Part shown: one piece after another, positions 24,209 through 36,039 of the stretch | How the letters are laid out: every line of letters starts with the position of its first letter | Numbering within the stretch: position 1 is the stretch's first letter | Assembly: GCA_964563915.1 (NCBI GenBank) | Contig: CAZLYW010000001.1 | Location: 560-64,559 of the forward strand | From: an uncultured Candidatus Peribacteria bacterium | Lineage (GTDB): Bacteria; Patescibacteriota; Gracilibacteria; Peribacterales; Peribacteraceae | DNA length: 64,000 bases | Direction: 5' to 3' | Made by a program: the position numbers and the translations under genes | Notes under the pieces: generated by a model | The model's input: only the letters and a program-made list of their open reading frames with translations | The model's database searches: none | What the model was told of the DNA's origin: nothing

Positions 24209-26014
24209 ATGTGCGGAATATTCGGCTACGTCGGTGGAAGAACCGACGCGGGAGTGATTGCTATCGAGGGCCTCAAGAATCTCGAGTACCGCGGTTACGA
24301 CTCCTGGGGCATCGCATCCCAATGCAACGGCAAGCTCCTGGTCAAAAAGGACATCGGCCCGATCGGGGACATCAAGAGCGAGGATTTTTCTGGCACCTGC
24401 TCACTCTCGATCGCTCACACGCGCTGGGCGACGCATGGAGGAGTCACTCAACGTAACGCCCATCCGCACCTGAGCGAGGACGGCACGATTGCCGTCGTCC
24501 ATAACGGTATCGTCGAGAACTATCTTGAGTTGCGGAAGGACCTCAAAGCGAAGGGGCATACCTTCCAGTCCGAGACCGACACCGAAGTGATTCCCCACCT
24601 GATCGAAGAGGAACTGACGAAGACGGGAGACTTCACCGAAGCTGTTCGTTCGGCGTGCCTGCACTTCGACGGGCGGTACGCGATCCTGGCGCTGCACACG
24701 TGTTCGAATATGTTGGTTGCGGCAAGAACGGGATCACCGCTGATTATTGGCGTCGACCGTAGGGGTGGTTCGCGAACCACCCCTACGCCGGTCGACGGAT
24801 ATTTCATTGCATCCGACATCCCCGCCTTCATGAAGCACACGCGCATCGTCCAGTACCTCGATGACGGCGAAATGGTTGCGACGGACGGGAAGACGATCGT
24901 CTTCAGCGACATCAAGACGGGGGAGAGGCGACCCAAGCGCGAGATCGCGATCACCTATCACATCGAGCAGGCGCAGAAAGGGGATTACGAGCACTTCATG
25001 CTGAAGGAGATCATGGACCAGAAGGAGAGCGTGGCGCGGGCAGTCAATCAGGACGAGGGCGAAATCCGGACGATCGCCGAAGCGATCCGCCGCGCGAAGG
25101 GCACCTTCCTCGTCGGCTGCGGCACCGCGGCGAAGGCCTGCATGGCGGCGGAGTACTTCTTCTCTGTCATCGCGGAGCACCACGTGAACTTCGCGCCGGC
25201 GAGCGAGTTCAAACTGTTCCATCACTTCCTGAAGCCCGAAAGCCTCCTGATCGTCGTAAGCCAGAGCGGTGAGACGGCCGACGTGCTCGAGGCGATGCGC
25301 GTCGCGCGCGACAAGGGCGCGAAGGTGCTCGCGATCGTGAATGTGGAGGGTTCCACCATTGATCGCGAGGCGGATTACACGCTCCTCATCAACGCAGGAC
25401 CTGAACGGGCAGTCGCCTCCACCAAAGCGCTCACCGGACAGCTCGCCGTGCTCCTGCTGATCGCCTACGCGCTCACGGAGCGGTTGAAGGAAGGCAAGAC
25501 GCTGCTCCTCGAGAGCGCCTCCGCCATCAACGACATGCTCAACCCGCGGTTCGTGGAACGCCTCGAGACGCTCGCGGAGAAGATCCACGGCAACGACGAT
25601 CTCTACATCATCGGCAAGAGCTGGAACTACCCGATGGCCCTCGAGAGCGCAATCAAGATCCAGGAAGTGAGCTACGTCCACGCGGAGGGCTTCGCCGGAG
25701 GCGAGCTGAAACATGGGCCCATCGCGTTAATAGAGGAGGGGAGTCCCTGCATCGTCCTCACCGGCAACGATGAAGCGTTGCAGGATATCCTCAGTAACGC
25801 CCAGGAACTGAGAGCCCGTGGCGCGATGATCGTCGGCGTCGGTCCGAAGAAGTTTGAGGTCTTCGACGAGTGGATCAAAGTGCCGGAGGCGGGGACTGCG
25901 CAGGCTCTCCTCAACATCATCCCGATTCAGGTGCTGGCGTACTTTTTGGCGGTGAAGAGAGGGAAGAACCCTGATATGCCCCGGAACTTGGCGAAAAGTG
26001 TAACAGTGAAGTGA
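24209..26014 (+). CDS. glmS: glutamine-fructose-6-phosphate aminotransferase
   Basis: MCGIFGYVG N-terminal nucleophile, two SIS domains and C-terminal NLAKSVTVK. Contains an in-frame palindromic insert. Confidence 0.95.
   Translation: MCGIFGYVGGRTDAGVIAIEGLKNLEYRGYDSWGIASQCNGKLLVKKDIGPIGDIKSEDFSGTCSLSIAHTRWATHGGVTQRNAHPHLSEDGTIAVVHNGIVENYLELRKDLKAKGHTFQSETDTEVIPHLIEEELTKTGDFTEAVRSACLHFDGRYAILALHTCSNMLVAARTGSPLIIGVDRRGGSRTTPTPVDGYFIASDIPAFMKHTRIVQYLDDGEMVATDGKTIVFSDIKTGERRPKREIAITYHIEQAQKGDYEHFMLKEIMDQKESVARAVNQDEGEIRTIAEAIRRAKGTFLVGCGTAAKACMAAEYFFSVIAEHHVNFAPASEFKLFHHFLKPESLLIVVSQSGETADVLEAMRVARDKGAKVLAIVNVEGSTIDREADYTLLINAGPERAVASTKALTGQLAVLLLIAYALTERLKEGKTLLLESASAINDMLNPRFVERLETLAEKIHGNDDLYIIGKSWNYPMALESAIKIQEVSYVHAEGFAGGELKHGPIALIEEGSPCIVLTGNDEALQDILSNAQELRARGAMIVGVGPKKFEVFDEWIKVPEAGTAQALLNIIPIQVLAYFLAVKRGKNPDMPRNLAKSVTVK
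24752..24796. repeat. in-frame palindromic insert in glmS: GTCGAC + perfect 30-bp palindrome + CCG + GTCGAC
   Basis: cgtaggggtggttcgcgaaccacccctacg (24758-24787) equals its own reverse complement and is flanked by two GTCGAC copies. It encodes RRGGSRTTPTPVD. Confidence 0.9.
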
Positions 26015-30328: not shown

Positions 30329-32092
30329 ATGTACTTCCGCCCCCGCCACCGACGCGGAGTGTATCCGCTCGCGCAGGAACACACGCTCCCACGAGGCGTG
30401 CGGATGTTGCTCACCGCCGGCGCGGCTCTGTTCGCCGCGTACTTGCTCTGGACACTACTCCTGCGGCTCTTCGGGATCGCGGGCGGAGCGGAGCGCGCGG
30501 GCGCCATGCTCGCGGTGGAAGATCGCGGCACGGTCTCGGTGACGATCGACGGCACGCAGCAGCGGGCGGAGAACGGCATGATGCTCTTCCCCGGTGAACA
30601 TCTGACGACCGGCCCCGGCGCCCACGCGTCGCTCCAGTTCTTCGACGGGTCACGCGTGCGACTGAATGAGAGTACGGAAATTTCTGTATCAGAGAGTGCG
30701 CGCGGCGAGAGCGATTCACGCGTGAGCGTGGACCTGCGGCAGGGAACGCTCTGGCTCATGACTGCTGGCCGCAGGAGCTTCACCGGTAGCATCGTCTGGG
30801 CCGTCACGTCGCCGACGCTCTCCTTCACACTCTCCCCTGGTGCAGAAGCGATGCTCTCGCCAACGTCGCTGGCCGTCTTCTCGGACGAAGGGGAGGGGAT
30901 TGAGGTATCGCTGGCAGGGCAGGACTCGATCATGATCAGCGAGGGCCAGCAGTGGGCGCTTCCCACTGGAGGGACCGCCGTCAGCTCTGACCTCTACGCC
31001 TACCGCGCGCCGCTCGATGCGGTCTCGGCGCGCTCACCGTTCGTCCTCGAAAGCAGACAGAAGCTCCTGCCGCGCGCCGCGGGAACGGCGTCGCCTGGGC
31101 GGTCCGCCGATGCGGAAGTGCTGACGCTCGCGCTTCCCGTGAACGGTGCTGTCCTGACGGAATCGACCGTGCATGTCAAAGGCACGGTCGGCGCGGGCGT
31201 TTTGTCCGTGCTCGTCAATGGGTACCCGGCCCTCCTCGATACCGCGAAGGGCACCTTCACCCAGCAACTCTCACCTCCCGACCCTTCGGCAGGCTCAGGG
31301 CAGGGCGAATTCGAGGTCCGCGTCCAGGCGCTGGATGCATCGCGCACCGTGCTCGCCGACGTGCGCCGCATGGTGAAGCGTGCGCCTCCTGCTCCACTCG
31401 CCGCCCCGACCGTCACCGTCCCCGCCAAGACGGGCCAGACGTACCGCACGTCCGCGGAAGAGCTGATCCTCCGCGGAGGAGCGCCTTCGGGCGCACGCGG
31501 CATTATGGTGAACGACTACACGCTCCAGCTCTTCGATCCCGCGAAGGAGGAGTGGAGCTACGTGGCGAGTCTGAGACTCCGCAACATGCTCCCGGGCGCC
31601 AACGTTTACGACGTCTTCGCGCTCGATGCCGCCGGCAGGAAGAGTCCCGCCGCGCGCATCACGATCATCCAAGGCGAAGGTCCGGAGGGCGTGGTGCAAC
31701 CGAGTTCCGCCGCTCCTGCCCTTACGGCCGGTCCGCTCCTCAGCAACGCGCCGCTGCTCCCTGGATCGCTGACGGTGACGCTGCCGACACCGGGAACGAG
31801 CCACAGCGAAACCGGGACGGGATTCCTCGTCGAAGGAACAACGTCGGCGAAGACCGCATCGATCTGGGTGAACGACTACAAGCTGCAACTCTACAGAGCG
31901 GGAAAAACGACGTGGAACTACATCGCGGACGTCGGGCTGAATAATCTGAAGAAGGGGAAGAACGAGTACGTGATCGTGGCGAGGAATGATAAGGGCGAGA
32001 TTTTGGACACGATGACGTACGCGGTGGAGTACCAGCCATCCCTCGGTACGCTCAACGCTCCCTTCGACTCCGCTCAGGGCAGGCCGCGTTGA
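30329..32092 (+). CDS. membrane-anchored FecR-domain protein with repeated Ig-like C-terminal modules
   Basis: TM helix, then a FecR-like segment (LFPGEHLTTGPGAHASLQFFDGSRVRLNESTEI). Two similar modules follow: VNDYTLQLFDPAKEEWSY and VNDYKLQLYRAGKTTWNY. The start is uncertain (30329 or a downstream ATG). Confidence 0.6.
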   Translation: MYFRPRHRRGVYPLAQEHTLPRGVRMLLTAGAALFAAYLLWTLLLRLFGIAGGAERAGAMLAVEDRGTVSVTIDGTQQRAENGMMLFPGEHLTTGPGAHASLQFFDGSRVRLNESTEISVSESARGESDSRVSVDLRQGTLWLMTAGRRSFTGSIVWAVTSPTLSFTLSPGAEAMLSPTSLAVFSDEGEGIEVSLAGQDSIMISEGQQWALPTGGTAVSSDLYAYRAPLDAVSARSPFVLESRQKLLPRAAGTASPGRSADAEVLTLALPVNGAVLTESTVHVKGTVGAGVLSVLVNGYPALLDTAKGTFTQQLSPPDPSAGSGQGEFEVRVQALDASRTVLADVRRMVKRAPPAPLAAPTVTVPAKTGQTYRTSAEELILRGGAPSGARGIMVNDYTLQLFDPAKEEWSYVASLRLRNMLPGANVYDVFALDAAGRKSPAARITIIQGEGPEGVVQPSSAAPALTAGPLLSNAPLLPGSLTVTLPTPGTSHSETGTGFLVEGTTSAKTASIWVNDYKLQLYRAGKTTWNYIADVGLNNLKKGKNEYVIVARNDKGEILDTMTYAVEYQPSLGTLNAPFDSAQGRPR

Positions 32093-32108
32093 GCTACTCG
32101 GGATGACA
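32037..32108. repeat. family-A hairpin repeat, opposite orientation, spanning both convergent stop codons
   Basis: The reverse complement reads GTCATCCCGAGTAGCTCAACGCGGCCTGCCCTGAGCGGAGTCGAAGGGAGCGTTGAGCGTACCGAGGGATG, the same architecture as 26053-26107. Confidence 0.8.
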
Positions 32109-35951: not shown

Positions 35952-36039
35952 ATTTCGCCGGATAATTTTTTGTGAGTGCCGCGAACTGAATCGCTGGTTG
36001 TCAGCGGAGATTTCGAAATCTCCGCTGAAAAACGGCCAT

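Follow-up and report, generated by a model that had tools for sequence, protein, structure and literature searches.

Introduction

Short palindromic repeats of the type known as repetitive extragenic palindromes (REPs) have been described within genes as well as between them. Intragenic REPs tagged by GTAG or CGTC have been catalogued, with the argument that they are tolerated in flexible protein loops, and REP-associated tyrosine transposases (RAYTs) have been proposed as their mobiliser (Di Nocera, 2013, BMC Genomics 14:522, PMC3733652). In the part of the work of Quentin (2018; 10.1101/279083, PMC6006769) on which we draw, TnpA_Y1 subclass 2.4, equivalent to RAYT group 4 of Bertels et al., is associated with double-foot REPs, which have a 5' GT[AG]G and a 3' C[TC]AC; three G-C pairs form the base of the stem in the canonical long REPs of this subclass, a central deletion in an inverted REP dimer is a possible origin of the double foot, and REP insertions in unrelated genes, as well as REPs in frame in genes, are on record. 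Here, we describe an element of this architecture inside glmS, the gene for glutamine--fructose-6-phosphate aminotransferase (GlmS), of an uncultured Candidatus Peribacteria bacterium belonging to the candidate phyla radiation (CPR). It lies in a stretch of 64,000 nucleotides, called the window below, which corresponds to positions 560-64559 of contig C1 (CAZLYW010000001.1).

We propose that a perfect 30-bp palindrome in this glmS is very probably a double-foot GTAG REP, situated in frame in a permissive and already variable loop of GlmS, whereby family membership is judged from the architecture of the sequence. The two feet, the three G-C pairs, a GC-rich hairpin of 28-30 bp, a dispersed multi-copy family and the lack of a target-site duplication are all found. 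A cognate tnpA_REP gene that is flanked by or contains the same REP is present in genomes G019, G097, G198 and G213, but was not found in the genome of the window (G000).

Results

A Perfect Palindrome in Frame in glmS

The assembly of G000 comprises 1.16 Mb in 94 contigs, with 57.5% GC and an estimated completeness of 91.5%. Window positions 24752-24796 read GTCGAC-CGTAGGGGTGGTTCGCGAACCACCCCTACG-CCG-GTCGAC (Table 1). As the original prediction had stated, the 30-mer is its own reverse complement and is read in frame, leaving the open reading frame intact. The codons CGT AGG GGT GGT TCG CGA ACC ACC CCT ACG encode the peptide RRGGSRTTPT; a TAG stop lies in one of the element's three frames, not the one used in glmS. 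None of 100 dinucleotide-preserving shuffles of the window contained a match to the 30-mer, even when three mismatches were allowed. In an independent ENA assembly (ERZ27245685, contig k141_160009, locus L213) two of the 1806 glmS bases differ, while the palindrome and its flanks are identical, and this agreement with a near-identical strain indicates real DNA rather than a chimera of one assembly.

The RNA of the site is predicted to fold into 12 bp, a 3-nt bulge, 8 bp and a 4-nt loop (-37.2 kcal/mol; z = -6.0 compared to shuffles), in agreement with the earlier suggestion of an mRNA stem extending across a 3-nt bulge. The corresponding values for DNA are -23.3 kcal/mol and z = -7.2. GTCGAC is itself palindromic, so that the two hexamers are a direct repeat and an inverted repeat alike and mainly extend the stem of the hairpin. 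No Rfam family matched at the palindrome; elsewhere in the 3-kb region there were only two sub-threshold chance matches.

Table 1. Features of the glmS locus (window coordinates) and other genes of G000 that hold palindromes of this kind; host-gene names were assigned by reading the translations alone.
Feature	Position	Strand	Remarks
glmS (glutamine--fructose-6-phosphate aminotransferase), 601 aa, intact	24209..26014	+	End-to-end alignment with E. coli GlmS
Perfect 30-bp palindrome CGTAGGGGTGGTTCGCGAACCACCCCTACG	24758..24787	none	Equal to its own reverse complement
Probable double-foot GTAG REP core, 28 bp	24759-24786		GTAG foot (24759-24762), GGG, self-complementary 14-nt core, CCC, CTAC foot (24783-24786)
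Left GTCGAC, Val-Asp codons of the conserved GV(D/E) ending β-strand 179-184	24752..24757	+	Pre-existing host sequence
CCG GTC GAC, Pro-Val-Asp codons	24788..24796	+	GTCGAC corresponds to (I/V)-D of the ancestral …G-I-D-G-Y-F
Genes besides glmS with GTAGGGG-N14-CCCCTAC			O-antigen-ligase-like, transketolase (tkt), TPR membrane protein
Genes with near-copies of this pattern			murB, purH, recO, rsmI
Genes with related palindromes			murA, korA-like (2-oxoacid:ferredoxin oxidoreductase α subunit), glycosyltransferase, FmdB-like zinc-ribbon gene

Related Palindromes in the Same Genome and Across Phyla

An exact-match search had suggested that the palindrome is unique in its genome, but a search based on its ends and architecture overturned this view. 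The pattern GTAGGGG-N14-CCCCTAC is matched at five sites of G000, four of them intragenic, and is accompanied by about 15 relatives with a GTAGGGG hairpin. Perfect palindromes of at least 20 bp number 27 in G000 versus about one per shuffled genome, and hairpins with a stem of at least 10 and at most one mismatch number 232 versus 69. Many of the palindromes measure exactly 30 or 32 bp and have common ends (TGTAGGGGCGCAACATGTTGCGCCCCTACA, TGTAGGGGCGCAGCATGCTGCGCCCCTACA, TGTAGGGGCATTGCATGCAATGCCCCTACA, CGTAGGGGTCATTCGCGAACGACCCCTA). Directly 5' of the hairpins, GTAG is the commonest 4-mer, with 110 cases compared to 73 or fewer for unrelated 4-mers. At least 12 palindromes are located inside genes, with the frame open in all of them, and the intragenic copies use two TAG-free frames that give rise to x-R-G-x5-P-T or V-G-x5-P-L peptides. 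None of them occupies the TAG frame, but since gene calls would split such genes, this observation is circular and was not used as evidence.

The family extends well beyond the genome. Of 301 class genomes, 42 contain GTAGGGG-N14-CCCCTAC, representing 33 of 188 genera, compared to one genome for the reversed control pattern. Among the 77 class sites listed, 59 are perfect palindromes and 68 have a self-complementary central tetranucleotide, where about 6% would be expected if these bases were free; 54 distinct sequences are represented, usually with one or two dominant variants per genome. Most copies in other class genomes are intergenic and a minority lies in frame in genes, e.g., those of glycosyltransferases. 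The exact 28-mer of glmS was retrieved from 16 contigs of a species-representative genome collection and from 10 metagenome contigs, always between unrelated flanks. These contigs span at least eight phyla, including Chloroflexota, Cyanobacteria, Proteobacteria and Actinobacteria, with hosts such as Anaerolineae, Chloroflexia, Xenococcaceae, Ca. Electronema, Zoogloeaceae, Competibacteraceae, Rubrobacter and Ca. Ozemobacteraceae. Twelve of the 28-mer-bearing genomes were scanned and contain 5-40 family copies each, with GTAGGGGCGGTTCGCGAACCGCCCCTAC and GTAGGGGCGATTCGCGAATCGCCCCTAC as the dominant sequences; the latter also occurs in korA of G001 and in murA of G002. The search for further copies that had been proposed with the original prediction thus returned sister copies in the genome, the class and other phyla.

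Other palindromes were noted alongside. At the start of a Chloroflexia MAG contig (L198, positions 1-100) the exact 28-mer lies in the middle of a perfect palindrome of 100 bp that occupies the contig end and may reflect either a REP within a larger hairpin or a fold-back artefact of assembly. G000 also harbours about 60 mostly intergenic REPs of classical appearance, A-GTAG-[CTCG/AAAA/TTCG]NNNC-GGA-GNNN[CGAG/TTTT/CGAA]-C(G)TAC, which are counted within the 110 GTAG cases (examples at C30:12461-12647 and at window 32051-32097, C1:32610-32656). They are often clustered on alternating strands, similar to bacterial interspersed mosaic elements (BIMEs), and their stems are very divergent yet complementary; in a few copies the loop is replaced by …CCTGAGCGGAGTCGAAGG…. 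An intergenic perfect 28-bp palindrome at window 36001-36028 (C1:36560-36587), TCAGCGGAGATTTCGAAATCTCCGCTGA, represents a second family, GTCAGCGGAGAWTCCGGAWTCTCCGCTGAC, that is also present in frame in korA, the glycosyltransferase and the FmdB-like gene, where it encodes VSGDSGISAD.

The GlmS Loop and Empty Sites in Orthologues

GlmS of G000 aligns over its full length with the E. coli enzyme (PDB 4amv; E 5e-110), and the only gap near the palindrome spans 11 residues and separates GSPLVIGLGM from GENFIAS. The 91.5%-complete assembly yielded no other full-length match to glmS. An AlphaFold2 model built from a 50-sequence alignment (mean pLDDT 82.5, pTM 0.59) places residues 185-194 (RRGGSRTTPT) as a coil between strands 179-184 and 195-201, with a pLDDT of about 69 over residues 181-190. 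According to this model, the REP-encoded peptide is predicted to be the turn of a β-hairpin in the N-terminal glutaminase domain.

The loop in question, between …SPLI(I/V)G and YFIASD, has five to six residues in most family members and in E. coli, and 5 to 41 residues in this clade. In the same-genus genomes G007 and G006 it consists of no more than VEKG(S/A)G. At the same spot, glmS of G012 contains two hairpins of a CCCCTCC…GGAGGGG family, and the glmS locus L118 contains a REP with a …CTGAGCTCGTCGAAGG… loop. The palindrome itself was found in none of the nine same-genus orthologues and in none of about 118 other homologues examined. A comparison of GlmS orthologues, advised when the palindrome was first pointed out, has therefore yielded loops of other lengths and not a uniform homologous loop, and neither of the two outcomes that the original prediction had named as refuting has been observed.

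Empty sites are not specific to glmS. Orthologues of ten palindrome-bearing genes were located with a fused query in nine genomes of the same genus, and for each of the nine genes whose DNA was compared, palindrome-free orthologues exist. In rsmI, the clearest example, the empty site of eight species reads …GAAAAGAAGGAA|CTGATCAGC… and the filled site of G000 …AATGTAAGGGCGTTGCATGCAACGCCCGTTTTGATCAGT…, and G001 carries a longer-looped relative at the same site. One codon position of korA is occupied by GTCAGCGGAGA…TCTCCGCTGAC variants in G000, G002 and G005, by TGTAGGGGCGATTCGCGAATCGCCCCTACG in G001 and by a decayed third palindrome type in G009, and four species have none. In murA, the difference between G000 (GGTAGCGGCGATTCGCGAATCGCCGCTACC) and G002 (GGTAGGGGCGATTCGCGAATCGCCCCTACC) is a compensated pair, with which the palindrome stays perfect. 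Another kind of coding palindrome was seen in O-antigen-ligase-like orthologues (L079 in G008, L097 in G003 and L099 in G006), where long in-frame inverted repeats of tandem GGAAAAT/ATTTTCC-type units, about 60 nt in total, stand where G000 has a 30-bp REP.

Origin of the Flanking Hexamers

Palindrome-free relatives already carry V-D-R-x-x-x-G-I-D-G around a 10-residue loop, e.g., GTGGACCGT…ATCGACGG. The loop DNA of G002 is GTGGACCGTCAGCAAAACGGCATCGACGGC, i.e., GTGGAC CGT CAGCAAAACGGC ATCGAC GGC, that of L116 is GTTGATCGTCAGGAAAATGGGATCGACGGG, i.e., GTTGAT CGT CAGGAAAATGGG ATCGAC GGG, and that of L117 is GTGGATCGC…ATTGACGGC, i.e., GTGGAT CGC … ATTGAC GGC. The position of the left hexamer is occupied by GTCGAC itself in G008 and L118, and the right side reads ATCGACGG in G002 and L116, ATTGACGG in L117 and GTCGACGGCTAC in G014. 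By this comparison, both hexamers, together with the CGT that forms the first three bases of the element, predate it. The 39-nt, 13-codon unit that the original prediction had taken as inserted is consequently no inserted unit, since both hexamers are pre-existing codons.

Among 49 distinct family copies from many genomes, no flanking repeat recurs, and one of 6 nt is seen at glmS only. Family copies tend to be preceded by T and followed by A or G. No target-site duplication arises in HUH/Y1 transposition, by which REPs have been proposed to move. The GTCGAC pair had been interpreted as a target-site duplication or a microhomology junction; neither is supported, and we reject the duplication because the hexamers are ancestral in orthologues and none of the 48 other copies has a comparable repeat. 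Some REPs are inserted within small pre-existing palindromes (Di Nocera, 2013, PMC3733652), and by analogy this may apply to the glmS copy.

Palindromes in and Around RAYT Genes

In other genomes of the class, matches to the RAYT model are split at model position ~67-70, and the gap is an in-frame GTAG…CTAC palindrome just after MP(N/D)HxHG. Palindromes inside RAYT-like genes were found in G019, G097, G198, G213 (twice), G020, G093 and G147, and were thus seen, with the genes below, in CPR, Chloroflexota and Desulfobulbaceae genomes. An Anaerolineaceae RAYT-like gene encodes …MPNHLHGVIIIMDDAG-CRGGSRTAPT-QGPE…, which is close to the RRGGSRTTPT of GlmS, a Ca. Electronema RAYT-like gene encodes …-VGAKNFSPL-… in the same loop, and the open frame of a further Electronema RAYT is preceded, at a distance of 4 nt, by the exact 28-mer of glmS. 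The loop contains RG.{5}PT or VG.{5}PL in 87 of the 119 top homologues of the Anaerolineaceae protein, a fraction inflated by seeding on 5-residue words common to a query that contains CRGGSRTAPT; some of these homologues have tandem expansions of a half-site.

Such expansions were also seen in the RAYT-like gene L176 (G275:C4), where four tandem left half-sites, (GTAGGGGACGCACAT)x4, are followed by a single right arm GTGCGTCCCCTAC, and in the proteins P0154, P0194, P0205 and P0207 (…SRTAPTNQSRTAPTIDSRTAPT…). Tandem expansion of one half in RAYT genes suggests nicking or slippage at the centre of the palindrome.

Y1 HUH genes (PF01797) are present in 19 of 26 relatives. In G000, the gene at C43:1065-1553 encodes a RAYT that exceeds the NCBIfam cut-off (NF047646, 91 bits versus 80) and has NHVH and YIHQNP motifs, and a second, weaker Y1 gene is located on C38 (71.5 bits). 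The hairpins at Y1/RAYT genes of the genus are of the types GTAG-GCGAACCTTCAGG…, TAG-CCGCGGCC… and GTAG-CACGGGT…, with no GTAGGGG palindromes among them. The C43 RAYT gene lies 45 nt upstream of rsmI (C43:1599-2294), which holds a decayed in-frame GTAGGGG-type palindrome at C43:1748-1771, and the spacer between both genes contains two GTAG hairpins of a different type. Separately, in three related Peribacteraceae genera (L033, G013:C22; L034/L115, G009:C26; L035, G012:C37) the genes for leucyl-tRNA synthetase include an in-frame domain resembling a Y1 HUH transposase (…AAMPDH[IVL]HLLVSF…YI[QR]NNP…; PF01797, 63-71 bits). It is positioned just before the CP1 editing domain (…VFTTRPDT.FG…VLAPEHP), in open frames of 767-1059 aa.

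Discussion

The architecture and distribution of the glmS palindrome are in line with a GTAG REP that would have inserted into a surface loop of GlmS that was already extended and changing rapidly, or would have taken the place of part of this loop. It may have been mobilised as single-stranded DNA by a RAYT-type enzyme; we infer a role of a subclass-2.4 RAYT from the architecture and from the co-occurrence of both in other genomes. The element is tolerable since its length keeps the frame, TAG is avoided and the peptide RRGGSRTTPT is rich in Gly, Ser, Thr and Pro and thus suited to a loop. GlmS would then be made with a longer loop, and the ribosome would have to unwind a hairpin of about -37 kcal/mol. 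We presume that the longer loop is neutral for GlmS and that translation passes through the hairpin. No function for glmS is inferred; the element is presumably selfish or neutral DNA that survives where selection permits.

Several observations weigh against this reading. The exact 30-mer is single-copy in G000, even allowing three mismatches. The insertion is not clean, since the loop of G000 is 18 nt longer than the nearest type (VDRxxxGIDG), not 28 or 30 nt; either some 12 nt were displaced by the element or more steps were involved. At the homologous place, G008 has GTCGACAGGGGGGATGG, which faintly resembles the left arm and would be compatible with local ancestry. Both Y1 genes of G000 are flanked by different GTAG/TAG hairpins, as are the RAYT genes of the genus. 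A transposase similar to subclass 2.4 with an internal palindrome was not found in the 91.5%-complete assembly by tblastn with three palindrome-bearing RAYT queries, which gave only distant matches to the two other Y1 genes. The cognate gene may sit in the missing 8% or so, or the glmS copy may be a relic. With no cognate transposase found and other hairpins at the Y1 genes, mobilisation in G000 is at most putative, and no REPtron of this family could be demonstrated in the genus.

The first of these observations also feed an alternative in which the palindrome arose on the spot, by a template switch (a snap-back or the perfecting of a quasi-palindrome) that copied the G-rich …GAC CGT AGG GGT GG… into its own reverse complement. 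Such a local origin would account for the single-copy sequence, for the hypervariability of the loop in the genus, for the occurrence of AGGGGGGATGG at the homologous place in G008, for a net length change relative to relatives that is not 28-30 nt, and for a symmetry that is perfect through the centre, which a hairpin cannot select for. We nevertheless consider it improbable, given that both 7-nt ends, the 28-nt length and the positions of the feet are those of a family that numbers five copies in G000 and hundreds in the class, with the identical 28-mer in at least eight phyla. A chance match of the 7-mer at that offset is expected at about 6e-5, and the same process would be needed in a dozen genes with identical ends each time. 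Template switching may, on the other hand, keep family members perfect, and it competes with insertion of a REP as to origin only.

That the palindrome is a selected cis-acting element, tuning GlmS as an RNA or DNA pause, an attenuator, an RNase barrier or a protein-binding site, is quite improbable. The structure is indeed very stable, and the murA palindromes have been retained in three species, with one compensated change. In other lineages glmS is regulated by RNA, by the glmS ribozyme and by GlmY/GlmZ, which provides a precedent. Yet the element is missing from all same-genus and other glmS homologues examined, turns up across many phyla, in intergenic DNA as well as in unrelated genes, and has no Rfam match at the site. 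As to a DDE element resembling a miniature inverted-repeat transposable element, with two 15-bp terminal inverted repeats and a 6-bp target-site duplication, the two arms do resemble inverted repeats that abut each other, with a GTCGAC copy on either side, but we dismiss it as highly implausible, as both hexamers are codons in palindrome-free relatives, the right one is offset by CCG, no other family copy has a flanking repeat of 6 nt or more and GTCGAC, being self-complementary, is equally an extension of the stem.

Taking the palindrome as a GTAG REP, its presence in coding DNA fits a gene-dense genome (about 85% coding by crude calls based on open reading frames), where little intergenic room is available and REPs lodge in protein loops. 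A CPR genome of 1.16 Mb would thus still host a REP population, located in loops of essential enzymes that include three steps of cell-wall precursor synthesis. Odd inserts of 8-12 residues rich in Gly, Pro, Thr and Arg (RG…PT, VG…PL) in CPR proteins become explicable as REP-encoded, and such hypervariable loops in alignments should not be mistaken for functional motifs or assembly errors.

Two features call for a mechanism, namely the strict central symmetry and the reuse of codon positions by different variants. A speculative and rather unlikely possibility is that intragenic REPs in these reduced genomes do more than survive passively and that fixed loop positions in essential genes (glmS, murA, korA, rsmI, purH, tkt) are reusable docking sites, where one REP repeatedly replaces another and symmetry is kept by the RAYT or by template switching. 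The different families at one codon, the compensated change in murA and the half-site expansions in RAYT genes fit with docking sites, which, if real, would imply a steady, enzyme-driven variation in length and sequence of loops in core proteins. Plain selection for few permissive sites would give the same pattern.

Comparison With Known Systems

Palindromic repeats that lie in frame in essential genes and add a surface peptide while function is kept are familiar from the Rickettsia palindromic elements (RPEs; Ogata et al., 2000, 2002, as relayed in part in PMC3733652), in which the original prediction had seen a parallel. The parallel holds for an in-frame palindromic element in a permissive loop, but not for the family, which is that of the GTAG REPs. 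The RPE-1 type measures about 100-150 bp according to the same partial account, and RPE-4 and RPE-6 were placed in the CGTC-tagged superfamily, not the GTAG-tagged one (Di Nocera, 2013, PMC3733652). An RPE was rejected as a candidate for the glmS element, which is 30 bp long and GTAG-tagged; RPEs lack GTAG…CTAC feet and belong to another host clade.

With REP doublets (REPINs) and BIMEs, i.e., those of the E. coli TnpA_REP and the Pseudomonas RAYT groups 2 and 3, the element shares the GTAG foot, the GC-rich hairpin, the dispersed and non-autonomous nature and the link to a single-copy Y1 HUH gene. Whereas classical REPs are extragenic, imperfect, single-footed and arranged as inverted doublets, the glmS element is single, perfect, double-footed and intragenic. 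The likeness to the REPs of Di Nocera (2013) lies in short, tagged stem-loops in frame in known protein genes. That survey put its emphasis on DNA replication and repair genes of Opitutus, Thauera and Rickettsia, while the genes concerned here are the cell-wall precursor genes glmS, murA and murB along with purH, tkt, recO and rsmI, and the present copies differ in being perfect palindromes with no formal loop. Our literature searches retrieved no description of these elements from CPR genomes and no publication that quotes the sequences.

The double-foot GTAG REPs, to the extent that the portion of Quentin (2018) used here describes them, are matched in both feet, the three basal G-C pairs, a length of about 28 bp and the occurrence in many phyla. 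The glmS element departs from them in its CPR/Peribacteria host, in the lack of a detected gene of the subclass-2.4 type and in the intragenic position of four of the five copies. Both the phenomenon and the element type have thus been published before (Di Nocera, 2013; Quentin, 2018); what is added here is the host clade, the gene, a well-documented collection of occupied and empty sites, and the dismissal of a target-site duplication at the locus.

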